Shown here one piece after another: positions 1,787 through 15,478 of a stretch of 20,408 bases of DNA. Each line of letters begins with the position of its first letter. Positions within the stretch are counted from its first letter, which is position 1. The stretch spans positions 1 to 20,408 of the IMG/VR virus record IMGVR_UViG_2737471845_000026, one strand, 5' to 3'. Made by a program: the position numbers and the translations under genes. The notes below the pieces were generated by a model. That model ran no database searches. It was not told the DNA's origin and saw only the letters and a program-made list of their open reading frames with translations. Source of the DNA: a virus (lineage: Duplodnaviria; Heunggongvirae; Uroviricota; Caudoviricetes).

Positions 1787-2836
1787 TCAAGAAAGTTTCT
1801 TCCGGATCTCCTTCAGTGTTTGTTGAAAACGCTCCGTCTCAAGCTCAACACCCATCGCCCTGCGGCCCAGCGACAATGCCGCTTTTATTGTTGAGCCTGA
1901 CCCCATAAAAAAATCCGCAACCACATCCCCCGGACGACTGCTGGCGGTGATTATCTGACGCAACATATCCGCCGGTTTTTCACAGGGAGGTTTGCCTGGG
2001 TAATACTGTACTGGCTTGTGCGTCCAGACATCCGTATACGGAACGGCAGCTGATACGGAAAAATAACGCCGCAGTGATTTATATTCCTCCAGCAGGCTGG
2101 CATATTGCCGGTTCAGTTCGCTGTATGTGCTGACCAGTCTGTGATGTTGCTGCTCCAGTTCACCGCGCTGATGCTTTTCTGCCGCTACACGTGCAAACAG
2201 CGCCTGCAGTTTACTGTAATCGGCCTCATTCGGTAACTGCCACTGACTGGTACCAAACCAGTGCGAAGCCATGTTTTTCTTTCCGGTGGCTTCCGCTATC
2301 TGTTTCGACGTTATCCCCAGTGATTCACGCGCATCACGAAAGTAAGAAATCAGCGGGGCCATGACGTGCTGTTTAAGTTCACGCCCCTTTGCCGCATAGC
2401 CGTCATTTTTTGGCTGGTATGGCCCCTGATAATGTTCGGCAAACAGAATGCGCTCTGTTGCCGGGAAATACGCCCGTAAACTTTCCTTATTGCACCCGTT
2501 CCAGCGTCCGCACGGCTTCGCCCAGATAATGTGGTTCAGCACATTAAAGCGTTCACGCATCATGATTTCGGTATCAGATGCCAGGCGATGACCACAGAAC
2601 AGGTAAAGACTTCCGGCGGGTTTTAATACCCGCCAGAACTGCGCAAGACACTGGTCCAGCCATTGCAGGTAATCAGCGTCGCCCTTCCACTGGTTATCCC
2701 AGCCCTCGGGCTTCACTTTAAAGTATGGCGGGTCTGTGACTATCAGATCGACGGAGTTTTCCGGTAAGGTCCGGATAAATTCCAGGCAATCAGCGTTGAT
2801 TAACTCACAACTGGATATTTTTACAGTATTAGCCAT
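1787..2836 (-). CDS. DNA amino-methyltransferase (N6-adenine or N4-cytosine, beta-class motif order), apparently orphan (349 aa)
   Basis: Motif IV DPPY near the N-terminus (LIVTDPPYF) and AdoMet motif I FxGxG near the C-terminus (DFFMGSGST). No restriction endonuclease candidate is adjacent. Confidence 0.85.
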   Translation of the reverse strand: MANTVKISSCELINADCLEFIRTLPENSVDLIVTDPPYFKVKPEGWDNQWKGDADYLQWLDQCLAQFWRVLKPAGSLYLFCGHRLASDTEIMMRERFNVLNHIIWAKPCGRWNGCNKESLRAYFPATERILFAEHYQGPYQPKNDGYAAKGRELKQHVMAPLISYFRDARESLGITSKQIAEATGKKNMASHWFGTSQWQLPNEADYSKLQALFARVAAEKHQRGELEQQHHRLVSTYSELNRQYASLLEEYKSLRRYFSVSAAVPYTDVWTHKPVQYYPGKPPCEKPADMLRQIITASSRPGDVVADFFMGSGSTIKAALSLGRRAMGVELETERFQQTLKEIRKKLS

Positions 2837-4329: not shown

Positions 4330-5151
4330 CTATCGCGTTACCTTCTTTAACTGCCACTCCGCCCATGCCTCTTCAATGTCAAACCGAACCACCAACGTAT
4401 CGTAAAAGCGCTTCACTGATTTTTTCCACGTATCAAGTGTAATAGCACTCGTCACTTTGCATATGGCATTAAATGCCTCCGTTGATGGCAGTCGTTCATA
4501 ACCACGACCGCCACAACGTTGGCAGTCCCTGATAACAGGCATCCCCCGTTTTTCCGACTCTTCACGATAAATGGCAACACCACGCCCACGGCAATCTTTA
4601 CAGGCAGTGGAAATCTCCCCCTTCCCTTTACATTCAGGACAGGAAACTTTCACCACCTCCCGGATTTTTTTCCATTCTTCCCAGTAAGACGGATACACAC
4701 CTTTCGTACACTTTGCCCATACTGGCGGCTTGCCATCCGGATACTGAACCTTGCTTGTAAAAACTTCGCTTTCAATAAATTTTTCCCCATGGCAACAGGG
4801 GCACTGCTTTTTACTCGCAGCACTACGGGCATAATCCTCAAAAGCATACGAAGCCATAATGCGCATCACTGCCGGTTTTATTTCTGCCGGAAGTTTTCTT
4901 AACGCCGCCACACTATCGCACTGACTTAATGCATAATCTGCCAGTAATTCTGTTGCCCGCACTCTGTCATTCATACTGATGCCCATTTTCCCCAGGAACG
5001 CAGAAAATCCCATCTCAGCCCGGTTCTGTGTCATGCCCTGTGCAGCCATCACATCAGTGATACTCAGTGCATCTTTTGATGTCGAGGCGGATGCATCAGT
5101 CAGGCCTGGCGATTTCGGGGAATAGTATTTCGGTAAATCTTCCAGCTTCAT
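4330..5151 (-). CDS. Late-gene antiterminator Q-like protein (273 aa)
   Basis: Sits directly downstream of rusA with an ATGA start/stop overlap, the canonical Q position. Multiple CxxC zinc-binding motifs (CPCCHG, CPECKGKG, CKDCRGRG, CQRCGGRG). Assignment rests on synteny and motifs, not alignment. Confidence 0.65.
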   Translation of the reverse strand: MKLEDLPKYYSPKSPGLTDASASTSKDALSITDVMAAQGMTQNRAEMGFSAFLGKMGISMNDRVRATELLADYALSQCDSVAALRKLPAEIKPAVMRIMASYAFEDYARSAASKKQCPCCHGEKFIESEVFTSKVQYPDGKPPVWAKCTKGVYPSYWEEWKKIREVVKVSCPECKGKGEISTACKDCRGRGVAIYREESEKRGMPVIRDCQRCGGRGYERLPSTEAFNAICKVTSAITLDTWKKSVKRFYDTLVVRFDIEEAWAEWQLKKVTR

Positions 5152-5522
5152 TTTTTGACCTGCCCGTCATGCATTATTTCGTAAATCTTCACGCCCAACC
5201 GACCACCTGGGACAAGCTGACCGCGCACAATATTGATTTCATCAAACTGCTCGTCGTCGATAAGCAACCCCGCATGCGTCAACGCATCCAGCGGTGCTTT
5301 CAGGATATTGTCCAGGTCACGACGGCGTTTATCCGGCGGCTCTGCGATAACCGTTATCGCCAGCCTTCCGGACAGGTTTAATTTCAGCCGCTGCTGGCGA
5401 ACGATAAGCGCCACATCACAGCGATAACGCTTACCGGCTTCCGATATAAAATATGTGCTGCCACGACGTCGCCAGTAAGTGTTCACCGTCGGCGGGTAAG
5501 GCAAAACAAATTCTATCCCCAT
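5148..5522 (-). CDS. rusA: Holliday junction resolvase RusA (124 aa)
   Basis: Matches the RusA pattern throughout (PYPPTVNTYW...PDKRRRDLDNILKAPLDALTHAGLLIDDEQ); SD AAAGAGG 7 nt upstream of the ATG at 5522. Confidence 0.9.
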   Translation of the reverse strand: MGIEFVLPYPPTVNTYWRRRGSTYFISEAGKRYRCDVALIVRQQRLKLNLSGRLAITVIAEPPDKRRRDLDNILKAPLDALTHAGLLIDDEQFDEINIVRGQLVPGGRLGVKIYEIMHDGQVKK

Positions 5523-5534
5523 CAGTAACCTCTT

Positions 5535-6584
5535 TTATCCGAGTACGCCAGTTGCAAAGGCGTGATCAAGAAAACGAAAAATTAAATCAACCTGAGAACC
5601 ATGCTTTTCTTCGAACGCCTGCGGATCTGCATGAAGTTCATTGTGATGTTCCCGGCACAGCGGCAACGTAAAAATATCGTGGGCTTTTGTCCCCATTCCG
5701 CCCTGACCGTGACCAATCAGGTGATGGGGATCGTCTGCTGGCTTACCACAACACGTACACGGCTGTGTCTTTACCCAGCGCGTGTATTTCTCATTCACCC
5801 AGCGGCGACGTTTAGGCCGCTTCATGAATGATTCCGGTGACTCCGGATCAACGGCAATGCTGACCACCGTCTTTTCCTGTGGTGCGTTCTGTTGCTGGTG
5901 GGCGTGAGGCAACGGCGCAAAATTTTTTGTGCGCTGCTTCAGTATGCTGGTGGCGGTCCGCTCTCCATGTACGATGTCGCTTTCGCGGTACACCGAGCGG
6001 ATTTTTTCCGCACGCAACCCCAGAGAACGACGTAATACTGACTCCGGTAGCGCGTCCGCTACCTGATTGCAGACCGCCCACCAGGATAATTCAGCCAGCG
6101 ACAATTCCCGTTCCTGTGTACTGCTTATTGCGTGACGTATGACGTCAATCATCCAGGCTGTCAGATTTTGTTGAGCAAGCTGCCCGAGTGATTCGGATGT
6201 CTGGTCACGCAGCTGGTTGTCACAGTGCCAGCACAACACCATCGCGCCAGTACCGTAACGATGTATGACGGTTTCACTGTGGTGATAGTCACCATGAGGC
6301 CACTGGCAGGATTTAACGTGGCGCAACAGCCAGTCAGAGAGTGCGCCAGCACCACCAGCGGCACGAATCACACGCTCATCGCTGAAAAATGGCAGTAATG
6401 ATTTATCTTCCGCCAGCGGCTGGCGAACGGCAGGAACAACTCCGGACGGCAAACATCGCATGCTTTTCGGTTCCGGTTCCACCAGCACTCGAGGGTTATG
6501 AAATACCTGCATGGATTCACGGCCCGGCTTAAGGACCACCAGCCCAAGTTCCGGTACCGGAACAGGTCGAAGTAATACCCGCAC
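5535..6584 (-). CDS. DUF968-family protein (YdfU-like) with a C-terminal HNH-like Cys/His motif (349 aa, GTG start)
   Basis: C-terminus CTCCGKPADDPHHLIGHGQGGMGTKAHDIFTLPLCREHHNELH. Size and position next to rusA and Q match Qin prophage YdfU as I recall it. The start is ambiguous (GTG at 6584 or downstream ATGs). Confidence 0.75.
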   Translation of the reverse strand: MRVLLRPVPVPELGLVVLKPGRESMQVFHNPRVLVEPEPKSMRCLPSGVVPAVRQPLAEDKSLLPFFSDERVIRAAGGAGALSDWLLRHVKSCQWPHGDYHHSETVIHRYGTGAMVLCWHCDNQLRDQTSESLGQLAQQNLTAWMIDVIRHAISSTQERELSLAELSWWAVCNQVADALPESVLRRSLGLRAEKIRSVYRESDIVHGERTATSILKQRTKNFAPLPHAHQQQNAPQEKTVVSIAVDPESPESFMKRPKRRRWVNEKYTRWVKTQPCTCCGKPADDPHHLIGHGQGGMGTKAHDIFTLPLCREHHNELHADPQAFEEKHGSQVDLIFRFLDHAFATGVLG

Positions 6585-6585
6585 G

Positions 6586-6858
6586 TTACCTCCAGATGCG
6601 TTGCTGGAATGTGCGGGATGAACGCGGTGGGCGTTCAGAATAAGGGAGCCTGACTGAAATTATCCAGTGTCGGAAGTCAGGACTGAGGTCTTTCTGAAAC
6701 TCATACCCACGTCTGCGGTAGTTCTGAATCAGCCATTCGGCCTGTTCTTCAGTGCATGGATCATGCTGGAACCAGTCGGTTTTAAATGCGCGTGAACGCC
6801 GCCATTGCCTGCTGGCAGGGGCGGTATCAGAATTGTTAAGTTTTGTGTAATGCACCAC
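6586..6858 (-). CDS. Hypothetical protein, about 90 aa (GTG start)
   Basis: ORF abutting the DUF968 start; GTG at 6858 preceded by ACGGGGA. Contains protein-like AEWLIQNYRRRGYEF but no ATG start. Confidence 0.35.
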   Translation of the reverse strand: MVHYTKLNNSDTAPASRQWRRSRAFKTDWFQHDPCTEEQAEWLIQNYRRRGYEFQKDLSPDFRHWIISVRLPYSERPPRSSRTFQQRIWR

Positions 6859-6918
6859 TACTATCCCCGTAATGGTGCGACAGATGTCAGTTGTTCAGGC
6901 TGACTTAACCAGTATAAT

Positions 6919-7086
6919 TTAGTCTTCTTTAATACAGAAGTGGCTAACAGAATCCATGTGCGCTTCTTTACTGATCAAAATGGCATCAGGTGGTAGTGGT
7001 ATTACAACAAAGTCGCCATTCTCAAAAGTTATCACTTCATAACTACCAGGAACAGAAAGCGTGGCAATTAATTCCTTATCGTTCAT
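6919..7086 (-). CDS. AT-rich small hypothetical protein, 55 aa
   Basis: Internal ATG at 7086 (MNDKELIATLSVPGSYEVITFENGDFVVIPLPPDAILISKEAHMDSVSHFCIKED) with a weak SD; lower GC than the flanking genes. Confidence 0.3.
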   Translation of the reverse strand: MNDKELIATLSVPGSYEVITFENGDFVVIPLPPDAILISKEAHMDSVSHFCIKED

Positions 7087-7242
7087 AACCAAAATCCCAT
7101 GAACTTTAAACACATCCCCTTAAGGGGGCCATCCCTCTTCTCCCTGCGCGCTAACTAAGTAATATGATTCTATTTACCCCAAACGGCCCCTCAAGAACCG
7201 CACCCAATGGAGTACACAAAAAGCTAATCAACTACGCCGCAC

Positions 7243-7268
7243 AATAAAAAAACCCGCCGAAGCGGGTT
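7243..7268 (-). terminator. Rho-independent terminator of the hok transcript
   Basis: Minus-strand hairpin ACCCGCTTCGGCGGGT (plus 7252-7267) followed by TTTTTTTAT. Confidence 0.6.
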
Positions 7269-7340
7269 AAGTGCGGGTGCGTTGAGGATGCCTGACACAT
7301 CAGAGGTGGCGGGGGATAAAAATCCCCCGCCAGGTCACCC

Positions 7341-7496
7341 TTACTCCTCAGATTCGTAAGCTGTGAAGACAGTGACCTCCGTCTGGCCGGTTCGGATTCG
7401 TACCTCGCAGAGGTCTTTCCTCATTACCAGTGCCGTCACTATGACGGTTAAACAGATGACGATCAGGGCGATTAACATCGCCTTTTGCTGCTTCAT
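7341..7496 (-). CDS. hok: Hok/Gef-family type I toxin (51 aa), closely HokD/RelF-like
   Basis: Translation MKQQKAMLIALIVICLTVIVTALVMRKDLCEVRIRTGQTEVTVFTAYESEE is a Hok-family hallmark. SD AAGGAG 9 nt upstream. The listed 70-aa ORF is an in-frame upstream extension. Confidence 0.9.
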   Translation of the reverse strand: MKQQKAMLIALIVICLTVIVTALVMRKDLCEVRIRTGQTEVTVFTAYESEE

Positions 7497-7834
7497 AGCC
7501 AGCTTCTCCTTGCCTTTCGGCACGTAAGAGGCTAACCTACATGTGTAAAGCATGAAATTGGCCTCAGATTAATGTTAAGCGTCTTGCCGGACGCGTAATG
7601 TTAACTGGGGCTTTTCTCTGTCTGCCTTACAGTGGCATGCCCGAGGCAGACAGCCTCAAGCACCCGCAACAATCTTACCGACACCGATAAGAAAACGCTA
7701 TTTTTTATTGCCAGAACCTTCTGCCCAGGCTAATGTATCCGCGTCAGAACGGCGCAATGCGCTCGCCTGAGATACGTTTACTTGTCATTGGTGGCAACAG
7801 ATAACGGCAATTGTTATTTCTGTTTGTTTCCTTC

Positions 7835-7866
7835 AAAAACCCCGGACCGTCAATCCGGGTTTTTTG
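7835..7866. terminator. Bidirectional rho-independent terminator separating the nin-region operon from the hok locus
   Basis: Hairpin CCCGGA-CCGTCAA-TCCGGG (7841-7859) flanked by an A-run (7835-7840) and a T-run (7860-7866). Confidence 0.55.
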
Positions 7867-7870
7867 TTTG

Positions 7871-7948
7871 CTATCCCCAGCGGCAAATCGAATACACCAC
7901 CACCGCCATTGCAATTCCTGCCGTTGTGAATGCTTCAGGCCAGGTCAT
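7871..7948 (-). CDS. Candidate small hydrophobic peptide, 25 aa
   Basis: ATG at 7948 preceded by AAGGA (about 9 nt); translation MTWPEAFTTAGIAMAVVVYSICRWG is a single TM-like segment; stop abuts the 7835-7866 terminator. Below the 60-aa cutoff of the ORF track. Confidence 0.2.
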   Translation of the reverse strand: MTWPEAFTTAGIAMAVVVYSICRWG

Positions 7949-8146
7949 CGCAAAACATCCTTCACACTTACCAGCCCGTTCTGTTTCAGATACGCCATCG
8001 CCTGTTAAGCCTCACTCGCCGATATTTATGTTCACATGCTCAGGGATAAATATGCCTTTACTCTTAAATGTCTGATTTCAATATTCGAGAGTTCTTGCCA
8101 ACGCCGCGCACGGTTCTATCTTATTACCATTATTTGGCACTTTGAC

Positions 8147-8446
8147 TCACTCACTGTTATCCTCCTGGAAAATAACCGCATGCCCCAGCTTCTCCGCCAG
8201 TGCCAGTTCTGCCTTAGCACCTGCTGACCGCTGCCAGCCTTTCAGCATGTAAATCGCATCCACGCAGCGTATCATCGCCATGCAAATATCCATGTAGTGT
8301 GGCTGTGTCAGCCCATCCGGAAGTACTGCCGGGTTTAAGACTGTATGCCCTTCACGTTTCAGTTCCTCTTCCGCCTTGTGAAACGCCTCACGGTTGAAAT
8401 TTTTATATCCCGTCATTGGGCCGGCAATATAAACTCTCACCCTCAC
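8147..8446 (-). CDS. DUF4406-like protein (nucleoside 2-deoxyribosyltransferase-like fold), 99 aa, GTG start
   Basis: N-terminus MRVRVYIAGPMTG is typical of this family as I recall it. GTG at 8446 overlaps the upstream stop (GTGA) and has AGGAG 9 nt upstream. Confidence 0.7.
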   Translation of the reverse strand: MRVRVYIAGPMTGYKNFNREAFHKAEEELKREGHTVLNPAVLPDGLTQPHYMDICMAMIRCVDAIYMLKGWQRSAGAKAELALAEKLGHAVIFQEDNSE

Positions 8447-8697
8447 TCCTGAACTCTCCTGTCGAAATAAACGTAGTTATTCACTGTGCGCAACGGCATT
8501 CCAAATTTTATGGCGATTTCTCTCCTGGAGACGCCACGCTGATGCAGTTTTCGCGCCAGCTCAATATCGCTCTGAAGATATTTTGCTGACTGGTGAAAAT
8601 CACCACGCAGAATCAGACTTATTCCCATCTCCCGGGCTTTCGTCCTGACCGCCGCCTCACTACGACCAATCAGACTGCCGATGCTTTTTACCTTCAT
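8443..8697 (-). CDS. Small HTH-containing DNA-binding protein, 84 aa
   Basis: ATG at 8697; helix-turn-helix-like segments (SLIGRSEAAVRTKAREMG and VSRREIAIKFGMPLRTVNNYV). Confidence 0.5.
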   Translation of the reverse strand: MKVKSIGSLIGRSEAAVRTKAREMGISLILRGDFHQSAKYLQSDIELARKLHQRGVSRREIAIKFGMPLRTVNNYVYFDRRVQE

Positions 8698-8753
8698 TGT
8701 TCCCGCGCACTGCCGAAGAATAAGGATTTCAGCCCGCACCCAGCCACGCCATC

Positions 8754-9299
8754 TCACTTCACATCCTCTCCGGAACAATTCATCTGCCGTATAATATCCC
8801 GGTGCTTGTTCAGCTCCTGCAGCGCGGCGCAGACACGTTCCCACTTCCGGATATGACTTTTTGCCCGGCGCAGTTCACGGTTTGCCATATGTAGCGATGG
8901 CAGCATTACATAGTCGGTATGTTTTTCGGTGAACGATGGCAGTGACCGCACAATATCCGCCACCGTTTCTGTTTTAATTTCTTCCTGTGTTGCCGCTTCC
9001 TGTACCGGTAATGCAACCCCCGCTGGCTGAGGAAAGGCTTTACCATCAGTTTCCGCTACCGATGCGGCTTTCAGTTCTGCTGGTAAATTCTCGCCTGGCA
9101 TGCAGTAACGAAATTTACCGTTCTGATTAACGCGTGCCAGCCGCCCTGTTGAGGTTACTACCGCCAGCGTGGAAGCAACCTTGCGAATGCTGACACCGAA
9201 CTTACCCGCCAGTTCCTCACACGTTTTAGCCCCCTCCTGGCCGATAAACTCAATCATCATGTCAGCGGTAACTTTTTGTTCGCCCACCCCGGTTAGCAC
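8754..9299 (-). CDS. Winged-helix-containing protein, C-terminal reading frame (181 aa from GTG), in frame with the upstream 49-aa ORF across a single TAG
   Basis: No credible RBS before GTG 9299 or ATG 9260. Same frame as 9366-9515, separated by TAG at 9366-9368 plus 22 stop-free sense codons. HTH-like KTCEELAGKFGVSIRKVASTLAVV. Confidence 0.4.
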   Translation of the reverse strand: MLTGVGEQKVTADMMIEFIGQEGAKTCEELAGKFGVSIRKVASTLAVVTSTGRLARVNQNGKFRYCMPGENLPAELKAASVAETDGKAFPQPAGVALPVQEAATQEEIKTETVADIVRSLPSFTEKHTDYVMLPSLHMANRELRRAKSHIRKWERVCAALQELNKHRDIIRQMNCSGEDVK

Positions 9300-9537: not shown

Positions 9538-10284
9538 TTACTTCTCAATTCCTGGCTGGATGACATTCGTGCGCCAGCTCTCCCAGTTAAAATTCACCCA
9601 GCGACCACCGTTCATGGTCATGCGGTCCATCACGCGCTCGCCAAGCAGCGTATTCATCGCCGTATGGTTCAGGTTCGTCAGCATCCCGACGCTGTGCATC
9701 GAGGCCGTTCTGCGATCGACTATCTGGTTCAGTGTGACCTGTTCGTTACGCGTATCCCGCTGCATACCAATTTCATCCAGGACAAGCAGGTCAACCTCAC
9801 ACAACCCCTGCAAAAATTTTTCGCCCGAGTTTTTGTTGTCGTAGTTGCCGTGTAACGCCAGCATCACATCCGCCACCGTCACCACAATCACGCTGCGACC
9901 TTTCGCCAGAAGATGGTTGCCGATGGCTGCCGCCAGGTGATTTTTTCCGGTACCCGGCTTACCGCTGAACACAAAATTTGTGCACCCGGTCATCAGCTCG
10001 TCCGCGATGGACTTCGCCTGGCTGAGTGCATGACGCTGTCCGTCGTTCTGCACCAGGTAATTCGCAAACGAACATTTCTGGTGCAACGGCTGGATACCGG
10101 AACGATTCAGAATTTTTTCCACCCGGATCTGGCGATTCTGGCGGTTAATCTCCTCGCTACGCTTTCGCCCTTCTGCAAGCTGCCACTCTCTCCACTCGTC
10201 CACTGTCCGGTACGGCGCGGTTACATGCTGCGGGGCCAGCTTACGGATGCGTTCAAGAACACCACCTGCCGCAATATTTTTCAT
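9538..10284 (-). CDS. DnaC-like replicative helicase loader (IstB/DnaC AAA+ family; Rac YdaV-like), 248 aa
   Basis: Walker [18 protein letters not shown], Walker B LLVLDEIG, and strong resemblance to E. coli DnaC along its length ([41 protein letters not shown]). Confidence 0.9.
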
Positions 10285-10290
10285 AACCCG

Positions 10291-11400
10291 TTACCCCCTG
10301 AATCCCGGCGGAATTTCGGTGTCCGGTTCAGAAATGTGATTCACACAACGCTGGTTGTTCGTGCCGCTTACCGGAATCAACCAGGGGTTTTCAAAATTCC
10401 GGTCCGGTCCAAAAAACGTCGTCGCTCGCTGAACAAATTCCGTTCCCGTTTTCCCGGTAGCCGCCAGGTATCTTGCATAACGCCTCACACCATCCATCAT
10501 GGCCTCTGGTGGCACCCCCTCGCGTAATCTGGCCTTCCAGGCACTGAATGCGGATTTCTTCGGGTTTGCCCCGGCACGCAACGGGTATTCCCGCCAGACC
10601 TGTTCGAACACATCCGGATAATCCACCCGTCCCACAGGCTGCCCGGTGTTTTCCGGGACTACCCGATCGGCTTCCCGCTGAATGGCGGAATCGGCTTCAG
10701 GCTGCTGCAGTTGGTGTGATTGTTCCGGCCTTGCGGTCATCGCCTGCTGCACAGCGCCCGAATCGGCTTTCAGCGCATACGCTGAATCGGCTTCCGGTGT
10801 CGTGCCTGCTGGCTGACCAGAATTTACGGTCTGAACATCCCCTGCCTGGTTCATGGTGTTTTTTTCGCCATGAACCATAGTGTTTTTGTCCTGTTCCTGT
10901 TCTTTCTCCTGCTCCTGTTCTTGGCTTCGAAGCCCCTTAAAAGCCCCTTCGAAGCCCCTTACAGAATTTCGGCTATTATTCCGCCTCACATCCAGATGGA
11001 AATCCGTTTTATATCTGTCGTAAAACGCTGACAGAAAAGCGTTTTCAGGTAATGATGCATACTCATTCCTGACACCTGCACAACGGTTATCGCCAGGCTT
11101 CAACGTTTCCCCAACCTGCCAGGCTGCCATTTCATGGACCCAGACCATCTCTGCATCATGGTCATAGCTACAAAAACCAGCTTCAACAGCCCTTTTAAGC
11201 CCCTTTGAAGCCCCTTCCAGACCAAGCCCGGTTTCATGAGCAAGGTATAAAACTGGCAGGTAATACAAACCCAGCATATTTGCGTGAGGGGATGTCATCA
11301 GGTAAAAAGCAACAACTTGCGCTTCTGCACCCGCCTTTCTAAGTTCTCTCCCCGTTTCTCCCAGCCAGAATCGCGGAGAAACTTTTGCGTAATCACGCAT
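10291..11400 (-). CDS. Replication initiator (O-like/YdaU-like), 369 aa from the ATG at 11400
   Basis: Immediately upstream of the DnaC-like gene (6-nt gap). SD GAGG 6 nt before ATG 11400; the listed ORF extends to ATG 11511 but that start has no SD. Contains a QEQEQEKEQEQ linker and iteron-like repeats. Confidence 0.7.
   Translation of the reverse strand: MRDYAKVSPRFWLGETGRELRKAGAEAQVVAFYLMTSPHANMLGLYYLPVLYLAHETGLGLEGASKGLKRAVEAGFCSYDHDAEMVWVHEMAAWQVGETLKPGDNRCAGVRNEYASLPENAFLSAFYDRYKTDFHLDVRRNNSRNSVRGFEGAFKGLRSQEQEQEKEQEQDKNTMVHGEKNTMNQAGDVQTVNSGQPAGTTPEADSAYALKADSGAVQQAMTARPEQSHQLQQPEADSAIQREADRVVPENTGQPVGRVDYPDVFEQVWREYPLRAGANPKKSAFSAWKARLREGVPPEAMMDGVRRYARYLAATGKTGTEFVQRATTFFGPDRNFENPWLIPVSGTNNQRCVNHISEPDTEIPPGFRG
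10930..10960. repeat. Iteron-like direct repeats (three copies of AAGCCCCTT at 11-bp spacing) inside the O-like gene
   Basis: Plus strand ...GAAGCCCCTTAAAAGCCCCTTCGAAGCCCCTT...; encodes the peptide repeat GFEGAFKGL. Confidence 0.4.
11188..11216. repeat. Second cluster of the same iteron-like motif (two full copies plus one degenerate)
   Basis: Plus strand CAGCCCTTTTAAGCCCCTTTGAAGCCCCTT, about 240 bp from the first cluster and still within the O-like gene. Confidence 0.35.
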
Positions 11401-11478
11401 GGCTACCTCATCTGGTGCCGAACCTTCCTCCGGATATAATCTGTGGTTCCCAATCGACAGAACCAGAGGAGGTTCGAC

Positions 11479-11934
11479 ATGTATTTTTTGAAAAGCCTTT
11501 ATCAGGCTCATGTATTAAATGTTGCAGCAACAAACCGCTGGTGTAATAGCCCCGAAATGCTCCCGGATTACAGAGCCTGGCTGCGCGCAGAAACATACCT
11601 TCGTCTCGACATATTGATTAGCAAACTTCAAAAAGAGACTGCATCCATTCATAACCTTCAGGGTATCGACGCTGTTCGCATTCTGGTATCGCGCCATAGT
11701 GCTCTCTCAATAATTGAAGTGCGTCATCTCTCTTTTTCTGAACTGATTTTCTTGCTTCAACCAGCTCTGGAATCAGCGAATATCCCACCGGAAGTGATCC
11801 AATACCCACCTCATGTTGACGAGCAGTTACAAGATGTGCCATACAACCAGCGTGCTGGATTGACTCCCTGCTCAGAGGCTGAATGGGATCACTCTCTGCT
11901 GAAGAAATACCAAGATTTGTATAATCCTCAATAA
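11479..11934 (+). CDS. Hypothetical protein, 151 aa, divergent from the replication operon; antisense to the 169-aa minus ORF
   Basis: ATG at 11479 preceded by a near-perfect SD AGAGGAGG with 6-nt spacing; reasonable codon usage. Overlaps 11618-12127 on the other strand, so only one of the two is likely real. Confidence 0.4.
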   Translation: MYFLKSLYQAHVLNVAATNRWCNSPEMLPDYRAWLRAETYLRLDILISKLQKETASIHNLQGIDAVRILVSRHSALSIIEVRHLSFSELIFLLQPALESANIPPEVIQYPPHVDEQLQDVPYNQRAGLTPCSEAEWDHSLLKKYQDLYNPQ

Positions 11935-12140: not shown

Positions 12141-12566
12141 TTAATGCACAGCCAGAGTGTTTCCTGCCGGGCCACCACGATTCATCTGATCGAACAGAAC
12201 TATCGCTGATGCAACTAAATCATCGATATCTTTCACCAGCCGTTCCTGCGTCTCCACCAGCTCCCGAAAATAAGCGGAACTGTGGCTGCGCATTCGGGCC
12301 ACCAGCGGAGGCGGCATCGCTTTTTCGATAGCTGGTAACAACGCCTGAATTTTTTTAACCGCGTCAGGGGTATCTTTCTCCAGCCAGCGGAAAATTTTCT
12401 GGGTATTACGGCCCAGGGCTTCCGGATGGCTGTCGTCGAACAGTTCAGGAAACGTCAGACCCAACTCGAAATAAGCCCGGGTTATTTCAGCTGCCGGAAC
12501 TTTTTCACCGTCCGGATATGCCCAGGCATTCATCGCCATGCGGATGTGTTCATGCTTGATTTTCAT
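12141..12566 (-). CDS. YdaT-like protein (141 aa), putative CII-like regulator of the Rac-type immunity region
   Basis: N-terminus MKIKHEHI and size and position (after the cro-like gene, before replication genes) match Rac prophage YdaT as I recall it. Overlaps the upstream gene by 17 nt. Confidence 0.65.
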   Translation of the reverse strand: MKIKHEHIRMAMNAWAYPDGEKVPAAEITRAYFELGLTFPELFDDSHPEALGRNTQKIFRWLEKDTPDAVKKIQALLPAIEKAMPPPLVARMRSHSSAYFRELVETQERLVKDIDDLVASAIVLFDQMNRGGPAGNTLAVH

Positions 12567-12834
12567 GAATCAACCCTATTTTTTTGGATCTGATAATTTC
12601 TTCTGGAATCCCACTAACTGGAGTAGGGTGCAAATCAGGCCGGAGATCATGCGGAGTAACAATCCATTCCCCAAGCTCACAAAGCCTAATAACCCTCTCA
12701 CTAGGAACCCTGTTCCTGATAATCCAATTAAAAATGGATTGAGGCGATTTGAAACCAAACATGCGACTTACAGCAGAGGGAGAACCAATAGCCATAACCG
12801 CCTTTTCTGTAATGTTTTTGTATGTAGTGCTCAT
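12550..12834 (-). CDS. Cro/YdaS-like HTH regulator (94 aa from ATG 12834)
   Basis: First gene downstream of the operator-containing promoter, divergent from the repressor. SD GGAG 6 nt before ATG 12834; alternative ATG at 12846. Confidence 0.65.
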   Translation of the reverse strand: MSTTYKNITEKAVMAIGSPSAVSRMFGFKSPQSIFNWIIRNRVPSERVIRLCELGEWIVTPHDLRPDLHPTPVSGIPEEIIRSKKIGLIHENQA

Positions 12835-12861
12835 CGTTAACTCCATTTCAAGAACGGAAGA

Positions 12862-12889
12862 ATGATACTACATAAAGTAGAATTTGCAA
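12862..12889 (-). promoter_or_regulatory. PR-like promoter with an operator palindrome in the spacer
   Basis: Minus-strand -35 TTGCAA (plus 12884-12889), 16-nt spacer, -10 TATCAT (plus 12862-12867). The spacer contains the palindrome CTAC-N5-GTAG (12868-12880). Confidence 0.5.
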
Positions 12890-12934
12890 CTACGCAAAAT
12901 AGAAATGACGAATCAAGGTAACTGCTTTAATCTT

Positions 12935-12947
12935 CTACATATGGTAG
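12935..12947. promoter_or_regulatory. Second operator-like palindrome CTACATATGGTAG, overlapping the repressor ATG
   Basis: Same CTAC-N5-GTAG half-sites and same GAA flank as the site at 12868-12880; centred 67 bp away. Confidence 0.4.
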
Positions 12948-13393
12948 AAAACGCACATAAACATCGCGCATTCGCAACAAGACTTAAGTCAGAAATGGAT
13001 AGAAAAAACAAATCCATCAAAGACTTAAGCTTATCCACGGGCGTCACATACGAAATGGCGCGGCGCTACACCCTAGGCACAGCTAAACCACGCGACGAAA
13101 AACTCGAACGAATAGCAGAATTTCTGGGAGTTGAACCTGCATGGCTGGAATACGGTCAGCTAACAGAGAAAGGAATTGAACCAGCAGAAGATTCATTTGT
13201 AACACAAAGATCTGGTTCCAATAGCAATGGTGAATTTACTGAGTTAAGTGAAGATGAAAAGCGACTGATACGAACGTTTCGGGAGTTTCCACCAGTTGAA
13301 GCCAAGAATATGCTCCTGGCTTTTGAGATGAGGCTCAAGAAACTTTACGATTTCTACGAGAAATACGCCAGCACCCCACCACCTTCTGAGTGA
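12941..13393 (+). CDS. Prophage repressor, XRE/HTH family (RacR/cI-like), 150 aa from ATG 12941
   Basis: HTH KSIKDLSLSTGVTYEMARRYTLG; divergent from the cro-like gene with operator palindromes in between. Start is ambiguous (ATG 12941 without SD, ATG 12905, or TTG 12884). Confidence 0.75.
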   Translation: MVENAHKHRAFATRLKSEMDRKNKSIKDLSLSTGVTYEMARRYTLGTAKPRDEKLERIAEFLGVEPAWLEYGQLTEKGIEPAEDSFVTQRSGSNSNGEFTELSEDEKRLIRTFREFPPVEAKNMLLAFEMRLKKLYDFYEKYASTPPPSE

Positions 13394-14603: not shown

Positions 14604-15290
14604 TTTATCCTCCATTGAAGTTACTGGTTGAGAATGGAGACCACACGTGACAGCGTGTTGTCGTGCGCCGGACACGGATAAGAATCCGGCACTGACAGTT
14701 TACTGAAAGAATATATCCCTGAAAAGTCAGGGCATAACTCGAAAGCGCACGGCGGAGGTGTCTTTTCCTTAGAAGGCTTGTCGTTAGATTTCTTCGACCG
14801 TGCGCTTCCGGTTGTGGCACTCCGCGAAATGGCGCGGCGGTAAGTATGGCGGGGTTATCCTTACCCCATTAGTGGCACCGGGTTGTCAGGTTGACCATAC
14901 GCTTAAGTGACATCCCCGCTGCAACAACCCATGTTGATTACCTTTTGGCGGGTATCCGTTTTTTGTTTTCCCTTGTGATACCAGCCCTTTTTAAAGTGAA
15001 TTTTGTGATGCGGTGAATGCGGCTAAGCGCACGCGGAACAGTTAAAAAGGACAGTTGACATTCGTATTGGTTCTTATGGGTGGGTTATCTGTATCCGGCG
15101 TTAATTGTTAACTGGTTAACGTCACCTGGAGGCACCAGGCATCGCATCAACAAAATTCACTTCAGTGATGAAAGGTGAGAGAAAATGTTGAATGTAGCTA
15201 TTGAAAACCAGAACGGGTGGAATTATAGTGCACCTGCACCTCATAAAACGGGTGCCGGGATTTGCACCCCGATGATCACTAGAGCGCATA

Positions 15291-15312
15291 ACCGCGCCAA
15301 AGCGGTTTTTTT
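15291..15312 (+). terminator. Intrinsic-terminator-like hairpin plus U-tract inside the leader upstream of rha (possible attenuator)
   Basis: ACCGC-GCCAAA-GCGGT followed by TTTTTTT; embedded in a larger inverted repeat GCGCATAA...TTATGCG. Confidence 0.45.
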
Positions 15313-15478
15313 ATGCGTAAAGCGCAGCCACATTCAGATTATGGTGGGGCGTATGGGGCCGTTTTCGGGCGGGCCGGATTCTCTAGTGACCGGTAGTGCA
15401 AACCCTGTACGTCTCACCACCCATGAGATTTGCACCTACGGTGGTGAGTTTACCAACTTATCACTAGAGGCTGCCATC

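Follow-up and report, generated by a model that had tools for sequence, protein, structure and literature searches.

Type I toxin-antitoxin loci of the hok/mok/sok kind are widespread, with Hok homologues reported from thousands of phages and prophages in a recent survey (bioRxiv 10.1101/2025.08.07.668861), and three described systems guide the reading of the locus presented here: hok/mok/sok (parB) of plasmid R1, hokW-mokW-sokW of the Stx2 phages 933W and Sp5 (AF125520), and hokD (relF) of the Qin prophage of Escherichia coli K-12. The R1 locus stabilises its plasmid by post-segregational killing, and the definitions of its RNA elements that we use, including that of ucb, follow Le Rhun et al. 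2022 (PMC9841398). For the phage-borne locus of Sp5, HokW was found to be toxic and SokW, transcribed from its own promoter, to neutralise it, with a protection partly dependent on RNase III and Hfq; upon RecA-dependent induction (mitomycin C) SokW vanishes and HokW appears, and deletion of the hokW-sokW locus halves phage release (Takada et al. 2021, PMC8621323). Here, we describe a locus of this family on the minus strand, at 7244-7677, of a 20,408-nt stretch of Caudoviricetes DNA (IMG/VR virus record IMGVR_UViG_2737471845_000026, positions 1 to 20,408), hereafter the window, whose numbering is used throughout.

Identity of the locus

We consider, with a probability of about 0.92, that minus-strand positions 7244-7677 hold a type I toxin-antitoxin module of the hok/mok/sok kind which is complete, belongs to the hokD/hokW subgroup and is carried by a Rac/Qin-like lambdoid prophage in its nin region. 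An earlier sequence-only reading, made from the letters and a list of open reading frames (ORFs), had already proposed a stand-alone hok type I locus, and this is borne out by an end-to-end alignment with the annotated mokW, hokW and sokW of 933W and by a match to RF01794 at 7665-7494 (minus strand) in a whole-window Rfam scan, which scores 115 bits against a gathering score of 59 (E=5.7e-26) and covers the full model (1-157). The model runs from GGGUGCUUGA to the hok AUG, which makes it a model for the leader of the hok mRNA, Sok being the complement of one part of this leader. RF01794 is labelled 'sok antitoxin', yet what it models is the hok-sense leader (7494-7665, minus strand), so that the real Sok RNA lies on the other strand from the one reported for a match. 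Within 6800-8200, other Rfam matches (rsmX, isrK, GadY, STnc30, and others) stayed far under their gathering scores (E 0.04-0.8) and were taken as chance.

The toxin, described beforehand as a HokD/RelF-like protein of 51 aa with a strong Shine-Dalgarno (SD) sequence, is confirmed by a match of its ORF (7496-7341, minus strand; SD AGGAG at 7510-7506) to Pfam HOK_GEF (PF01848; E=1.7e-21, 76 bits, cut-off 22) and by identities of 48/51 residues to K-12 HokD and 46/51 to HokW; matches to NCBIfam were sub-threshold only (45 bits vs. a cut-off of 73). Mok is identical to MokW in 63 of its 70 residues, and its frame also aligns with the R1-type mok. No insertion sequence (IS) element, frameshift, premature stop or missing element was found in the locus, and no second hok copy was found elsewhere in the window. 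Homology and folding together allowed all canonical elements to be located, including the mok, sok, ucb, tac and fbi for which an alignment to hok/sok loci had been suggested, and each feature listed by the sequence-only reading lies at, or within a few bases of, the place where it had been put. The elements, from the promoter to the terminator of the hok mRNA and then on the opposite strand, are as follows.

7672-7677, minus strand: -10 hexamer TAAGAT of the hok/mok promoter, placed by homology; the -35 region is weak and not conserved
7244-7665, minus strand: predicted full-length hok mRNA, ~420 nt, starting at G7665 and ending with the T-run of the terminator (5' end at RF01794 position 1, 3' end from a terminator scan)
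7654-7665, minus strand: tac (translational activator), GGGUGCUUGAGG, at the 5' end of the mRNA; partner of fbi in the full-length minimum free energy (MFE) fold and of ucb in the Rfam consensus
7618-7653, minus strand: apical hairpin of the 5' tac-stem, CUGUCUGCCU / AGGCAGACAG, from an inverted repeat and the fold
7605-7613, minus strand: ucb (upstream complementary box, anti-SD), AAGCCCCAG; partner of the mok SD in the closed form and of tac in the open form
7562-7565, minus strand: mok SD, GAGG, 8 nt 5' of the mok ATG (7553), aligning with the R1-type GAGG mok SD (PMC9841398)
7341-7553, minus strand: mok ORF, 70 aa, in frame with hok and with 19 additional N-terminal codons (from the ORF list)
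7528-7532, minus strand: dcb, partner of the mok SD (7565-7561)
7528-7565, minus strand: predicted Sok-target hairpin of the open form, with mok SD paired to dcb and the mok AUG inside the stem (third hairpin of the Rfam consensus)
7506-7510, minus strand: hok SD, AGGAG, 9 nt before the ATG
7341-7496, minus strand: hok toxin ORF, 51 aa, MKQQKAMLIALIVICLTVIVTALVMRKDLCEVRIRTGQTEVTVFTAYESEE (Pfam PF01848)
7355-7358, minus strand: TACG motif containing the Tyr47 codon TAC; candidate TadA A-to-I site (Tyr to Cys), the editable A being 7357
7307-7332, minus strand: GC-rich 3' stem-loop just past the hok stop, GGCGGGGGA / TCCCCCGCC, from an inverted repeat
7275-7287, minus strand: fbi (fold-back inhibitory), CCUCAACGCACCC, CCUCAA-C-GCACCC, complementary to tac (MFE fold), between the 3' stem-loop and the terminator
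7244-7268, minus strand: intrinsic terminator, AACCCGC-UUCG-GCGGGUU then U7 (terminator scan)
7510-7538, plus strand: sok promoter, -35 TTGCCT (7510-7515), 17-bp spacer, -10 TAACCT (7533-7538), identical to that of 933W/Sp5
7545-7615, plus strand: predicted Sok, ~71 nt, transferred from the annotated sokW misc_RNA of 933W through a gap-free alignment

Comparison with described loci

From the mRNA 5' end through fbi, the window shares ~91% DNA identity with hokW-mokW-sokW; a pairwise alignment with 933W shows near-identity from GGGTGCTTGAGG (mRNA 5' end) to CATCCTCAACGCACCCGC and divergence outside these limits. In 933W the homologous stretch is annotated as mokW, hokW and sokW, both loci have tac, ucb, dcb, the 3' stem-loop and fbi in common, the sok promoter sequence is identical in the window and in 933W/Sp5, and both loci are carried by lambdoid prophages. 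They differ in their surroundings: the window locus belongs to the nin region, flanked by the replication genes and by DUF968/rusA/Q, whereas that of 933W lies at the far right end, beyond a tail-fibre gene; in the window an intrinsic terminator follows directly after fbi, whereas hokW of 933W has none at that position; and ~170 bp with an apparent bidirectional terminator separate a conserved small upstream ORF from hok, unlike in 933W.

Homology to the K-12 Qin hokD (relF) is of a different extent. The 3' untranslated region (UTR) is homologous throughout and nearly identical, stem-loop, fbi and terminator included, and the downstream neighbour is in both cases a DUF968/YdfU gene, but a three-way alignment shows that the homology begins only at the hok SD (CAGGAGAAGC; window 7496-7520). 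Since it starts exactly at CAGGAGAAGC, this point marks the breakpoint of the relBE rearrangement, upstream of which the promoter, tac, ucb, the mok start and sok are replaced by relBE in K-12 (relE upstream); K-12 Qin hokD gave no RF01794 match. The absence of relBE genes upstream of the window hok, an earlier claim, holds over the whole window: K-12 relB and relE gave no blastn match, and tblastn returned nothing significant, i.e., only two fragments of 7-8 residues (E ~8) near 5460 and 14790. The relBE-hokD (relBEF) arrangement of Qin is thus not that of the window locus, which shows the rearranged K-12 hokD (relF) locus as it looks with its regulatory leader intact.

The R1 locus is the more distant comparison, on a plasmid rather than on a prophage, and its Hok is only roughly 40-45% identical to that of the window. 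Even so, the order of elements is common to both, running from tac, ucb, SDmok, an in-frame mok and a dcb overlapping the sok promoter to SDhok, hok, the 3' stem-loop, fbi and the terminator. The tac-fbi pairing is preserved although its sequence has changed (R1-type GGCGC/GCGCC vs. GGGUGC/GCACCC in the window), and the R1-type locus scores 87 bits with Rfam, vs. 115 bits for the window. Among cultured lambdoid phages, mEp460_ev081 and Tritos carry a hok in the same place (replication genes to DUF968/rusA/Q) and orientation as the window, with 90.9-93.4% identity over ~70% of a 601-bp query (7200-7800); their flanking accessory genes differ, and only the toxin coding sequence (CDS) is annotated in them, as 'MokW protein' or 'HokD toxin'.

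The same query matches 79 phage records, and of the 5426 complete E. coli genomes that were searched, 4722 contain related sequence. NCBI already includes proteins identical to the window Hok and Mok, with close cluster relatives named HokD or Hok family toxin; the other members of the 90%-identity cluster of the window Hok are named HokD, and hokD is also the RefSeq label of the closest, near-identical E. coli chromosomal copies. The locus is, in other words, already known and annotated as hokD or hokW/sokW, a textbook type I module in a known genomic context, and its importance beyond correct annotation is small, given a 91%-identical relative that has already been characterised by experiment. 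What it does provide is a base-by-base map of the regulatory RNA for the hokD/hokW subgroup, in which genome annotations usually mark the toxin CDS only.

The predicted hok mRNA and its alternative folds

Folds were computed with ViennaRNA (z-score of the full-length RNA against 100 shuffles), and pairing was followed across relatives. For this, 27 related loci were gathered, one genome per species (Escherichia, Shigella, Kluyvera, Pseudocitrobacter and Pantoea among them), and the 23 distinct full-length RNAs, the R1-type plasmid locus included, were aligned and their pairs counted for both the closed and the open conformation. A full RF01794 match was obtained in all sampled loci except the relBE-type or truncated ones.

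A generic promoter scan with a 9-of-12 threshold missed both the hok and the sok promoter, and both were placed by homology and conservation of the -10. All 23 loci have a -10-like hexamer (TAGAAT, TAAGAT, TACAAT, TATAAT, TAATAT or TATGAT) at -12 to -7 from the GGGTGC start, and the sequence further 5' of it diverges and is unrelated among them. We infer G7665 as the transcription start of hok. An upstream start was also considered, as the 9-nt complement 7272-7280 / 7660-7668 extends 3 nt beyond G7665; the extension is not conserved in the other loci, and this candidate was rejected.

The full-length mRNA is predicted to fold at -180.9 kcal/mol (z=-8.2), and its MFE structure holds both tac-fbi and ucb-SDmok, with the hok SD in a local hairpin. 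The tac-fbi duplex comprises 12 pairs and one bulge (-21.5 kcal/mol) and is recovered by an independent repeat search as 7272-7280 / 7660-7668; tac itself is nearly invariant across the 23 loci. At the 3' end, the intrinsic terminator anticipated at 7243-7268 was recovered as a stem at 7268-7251 followed by a seven-T run (TTTTTTTA). The 9-bp inverted repeat that the sequence-only reading had seen in the leader (7617-7652) is there as well, forming the top of the tac-stem; it lies just past the 3' end of the predicted Sok and not inside it. It belongs to a longer inverted repeat (7607-7627 / 7644-7664) in which bases 7637-7647 are the predicted partner of tac in a metastable 5' hairpin.

Pairing is conserved across the alignment in both conformations. 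In the closed form 94.9% of cells are paired for tac-fbi and 94.2% for ucb-SDmok, the latter with one AU-to-GC covarying pair; in the open form the figures are 98.7% for tac-ucb and 100% for SDmok-dcb, which is invariant and so gives no covariation evidence. The apical helix is 94.8% paired and the 3' stem-loop 88.6%, each with two pairs changed on both sides. As a control, sliding the partners by 1-3 columns lowered whole-structure pairing to 36-53% in both conformations. The best duplex of the first 14 nt with the 3' UTR lies 45-55 nt past the hok stop in 23 of 25 loci; in the other two, the R1-type locus and PapRG, a different register was picked by the duplex finder, and their fbi was located by motif. 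Covariation of tac-fbi was considered and rejected, as only the R1-type tac differs and its fbi was misaligned by MAFFT, and the count given above measures conservation of pairing and not compensatory change. On the whole, the comparative data point to pairing that is conserved, without strong covariation.

A local hairpin hides the hok SD in the full-length as well as the truncated folds (helices 7529-7526:7508-7505 and 7522-7519:7514-7511), and this sequestration fits a hok translation that relies on translation of mok. Past the hok stop, the 3' stem-loop is a perfect 11-bp inverted repeat (7307-7317 / 7322-7332) with a 4-nt loop. In R1 the processed mRNA owes the stability of its 3' end to the equivalent stem-loop (Le Rhun et al. 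2022, PMC9841398), and mutating this stem-loop abolishes toxicity, for which the authors blame greater susceptibility to 3' exonucleases (PMC9841398). By analogy, stem-loop 7307-7332 is likely the stable 3' end of the processed, active hok mRNA.

The predicted Sok antisense RNA

A Sok-like RNA had been expected on the plus strand within ~7500-7700, and its predicted placement is now tighter, with a promoter at 7510-7538 and the RNA at 7545-7615. The latter is predicted to be a cis-encoded antisense Sok with its own promoter over the mok initiation region: its sequence complements that of the mok SD and AUG, and it would fold into a 15-nt single-stranded 5' tail, covering the mok start region, and one long hairpin resembling a terminator, with UUUU after it (-28.6 kcal/mol, z=-4.3). 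Support for the promoter comes from Sp5, where primer YO-421 replaces exactly the -10 of sokW and antitoxin activity is lost (Takada et al. 2021, PMC8621323).

Sok and SokW of 933W are identical at 65 of 71 bases. All six differences fall in the first 16 nt (7545-7560, plus strand) and the other 55 nt are identical, which makes cross-protection between the window Sok system and hokW-sokW uncertain; judging from their position in the tail, the differences could even render the two systems orthogonal. Such a divergent tail could serve to study how cross-talk is avoided where a genome contains several hok/sok copies.

Codon Tyr47 as a candidate editing site

TadA-dependent A-to-I editing that changes Tyr to Cys at this codon has been described for K-12 hokC, hokD and hokE (Bar-Yaacov et al. 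2017, PMC5630033; 2025 follow-up, PMC12214031), with an editing level of 6% reported for K-12 hokD (PMC12214031). In the window, the sequence has all the features of the TadA-edited hok mRNAs (hokB/C/D/E group), i.e., TAC within TACG, a predicted loop and Cys in other homologues: TACG sits in the 9-nt loop CUUACGAAU of a predicted local hairpin, every script-scored homologue with Tyr at position 47 uses TACG, and a genomic Cys codon (TGC or TGT) occupies this position in 7 of 21 distinct homologues. Several distant homologues are among those with a genomic Cys here.

Proposed mechanism

The mechanism that we propose is modelled on R1 and hokW; the sequence elements are present in the window, and the activities are drawn from these two systems. 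A weak constitutive promoter (-10 at 7677-7672) would give rise to a stable mRNA of ~420 nt, in which tac (7665-7654) would pair with fbi (7287-7275) and ucb (7613-7605) would lie over the mok SD (7565-7562), so that this closed, full-length form would be neither translatable nor bound by Sok. Slow 3' exonuclease trimming would then strip the terminator and fbi and halt at the GC-rich stem-loop (7332-7307), whereupon tac would pair with ucb and the mok SD/AUG region would refold with dcb (7532-7528) into the target hairpin. The short, unstable Sok (7545-7615, plus strand; promoter 7510-7538) would pair with it through its 15-nt 5' tail and block mok translation, and hok translation would be blocked too, because the local hairpin around the hok SD would make hok depend on the translation of mok. 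RNase III would cut the resulting Sok-mRNA duplex. Once Sok synthesis stops, through loss of the element or upon prophage induction as shown for sokW, the stable processed mRNA would be translated and the 51-aa Hok peptide would enter the inner membrane and damage it. A TadA-dependent Tyr-to-Cys recoding at Tyr47 is a likely extra layer, as reported for K-12 hokD.

Weighing the interpretation

Several observations count against an intact and active module. The window Hok carries T25M and A42T relative to both HokD and HokW, two residues that do occur in other homologues. The sok promoter agrees with only 7 of 12 consensus positions and went uncalled by the generic scan, and an activity equal to that of the relatives is an assumption, in view of the six differences in the 5' tail of Sok and of the two Hok substitutions. 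The MFE structure of the 3'-truncated RNA is the metastable tac hairpin (7663-7653 : 7647-7637) and not the expected tac-ucb stem, which leaves the Rfam consensus and the conservation of pairs, and not thermodynamics, as the basis of the open form. Covariation support for the helices of tac, ucb, mok SD and dcb is thin, these elements being almost invariant in the sample. Finally, the chromosomal hok loci advise caution, i.e., an intact-looking locus need not act like R1 hok/sok.

As to what the module does, we infer its activity and its role in the prophage from the relatives described above, which leaves prophage maintenance, faster lysis on induction and defence against other phages as candidate roles. 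That an active module, with the same molecular mechanism, serves a purpose other than prophage maintenance, be it faster membrane damage and lysis at induction or an abortive-infection defence, we regard as a serious but tentative option with somewhat less than an even chance. The hokW data speak for it, as mitomycin C led to the RecA-dependent loss of SokW and production of HokW and deletion of the locus halved phage release (PMC8621323), but the effect was a modest one (~2-fold) and the window prophage may be cryptic. R1 hok/sok lowers T4 plating, as cited in PMC8621323, but hok was not enriched near defence systems in the 2026 survey (bioRxiv 10.1101/2025.08.07.668861). The window hok also points the same way as the early rightward operon, with the replication genes on one side and Q on the other.

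This orientation allows a more specific suggestion, which we think unlikely, namely that hok is wired to induction by its direction: antiterminated early read-through would hit the sok promoter head-on, silence Sok by transcriptional interference and add hok-sense RNA. The window hok does read in the same sense as the early rightward operon and follows shortly after a terminator at 7859-7841, and the Sp5 locus presumably becomes co-oriented with leftward early transcription after genome circularisation. If true, read-through interference would explain the RecA-dependent disappearance of SokW in Sp5, which is otherwise unexplained.

A complete module also has to be set against a locus that looks intact and is biologically silent, a decaying chromosomal hok copy that has lost regulated killing in the manner of the K-12 hok loci. 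IS elements or rearrangement have reportedly put four of the five K-12 loci out of action (PMC12214031), the chromosomal hokA, hokB and hokC are reported, as cited in the survey (bioRxiv 10.1101/2025.08.07.668861), to lack post-segregational killing, which also weighs against our interpretation, and both window promoters are weak by consensus. We nevertheless find silence very improbable: no regulatory element is missing and all of them pair the way they do in active loci, with no IS element, frameshift or stop, the closest characterised relative, hokW-sokW, is functional (PMC8621323), and 42 of 45 diverse Hok peptides were toxic in the 2026 survey (bioRxiv 10.1101/2025.08.07.668861).

The last alternative concerns a single element within the complete module that we favour, and has next to no chance of being right: the inverted repeat at 7308-7331, read earlier as a candidate fold-back element, exists (with an 11-bp stem, 7307-7332) and is the strongest local inverted repeat of the 3' UTR, but it is self-paired and never paired with the mRNA 5' end in any fold, its R1 equivalent stabilises the 3' end of the processed mRNA (PMC9841398), and the complement of the 5' end is instead 7287-7275, i.e., fbi (CCUCAACGCACCC), in keeping with a tac complementarity 45-55 nt past the stop in 23/25 loci and 94.9% pairing in the 23 distinct ones.

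Prophage context and neighbouring features

Gene order was established from Pfam matches of the window ORFs and from the annotation of the best-matching genome, and it shows that the window is a Rac/Qin-like lambdoid prophage of E. coli. The nin-like location suggested before for hok agrees with this order, in which all genes but the repressor lie on the minus strand.

12884-13393, plus strand: cI-like repressor (Pfam)
12550-12846, minus strand: YdaS (Pfam)
12141-12566, minus strand: YdaT (Pfam)
10291-11511, minus strand: replication gene, from position and neighbour annotation, with no Pfam match
9538-10284, minus strand: DnaC-like ATPase (Pfam)
8443-8844, minus strand: helix-turn-helix protein (Pfam/neighbour annotation)
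8147-8446, minus strand: DUF4406 (Pfam)
7244-7677, minus strand: hok locus
5535-6584, minus strand: DUF968 (Pfam)
5148-5522, minus strand: RusA (Pfam)
4330-5151, minus strand: antiterminator Q (Pfam)

Upstream of hok, a 25-aa hydrophobic ORF (MTWPEAFTTAGIAMAVVVYSICRWG; 7871-7948, minus strand) has an ATG that overlaps the stop of a short preceding frame (ATGA). An unannotated 27-aa version, MTWPEAFANVGTVMAVVLVVYSICRWR (hand translation), is found in 933W directly upstream of hokW, at ~1910-1990 (minus strand) of the 933W extract. The 25-aa ORF had no NCBIfam match and may be a real small membrane protein gene. Between it and the hok promoter lies a hairpin, CCCGGATTGACGGTCCGGG (7841-7859), flanked by T-runs on both strands, which looks like a bidirectional terminator and has no counterpart at that position in 933W.

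On the other side, between the hok terminator and a 64-aa ORF (7113-6919), there is a promoter-like site at 7167-7194 on the minus strand (TTGAGG, 16 bp, TAGAAT; 9/12 consensus positions). Neither this ORF nor the following one of 90 aa (6858-6586) matched NCBIfam. The Rfam scan of the window gave no match to DicF. It did return isrK (15236-15312, plus strand; 68.6 bits) beside a C4 antisense RNA (15337-15424, plus strand; 78.1 bits), both above their gathering scores, and this pair is placed in the leftward early region of the prophage.

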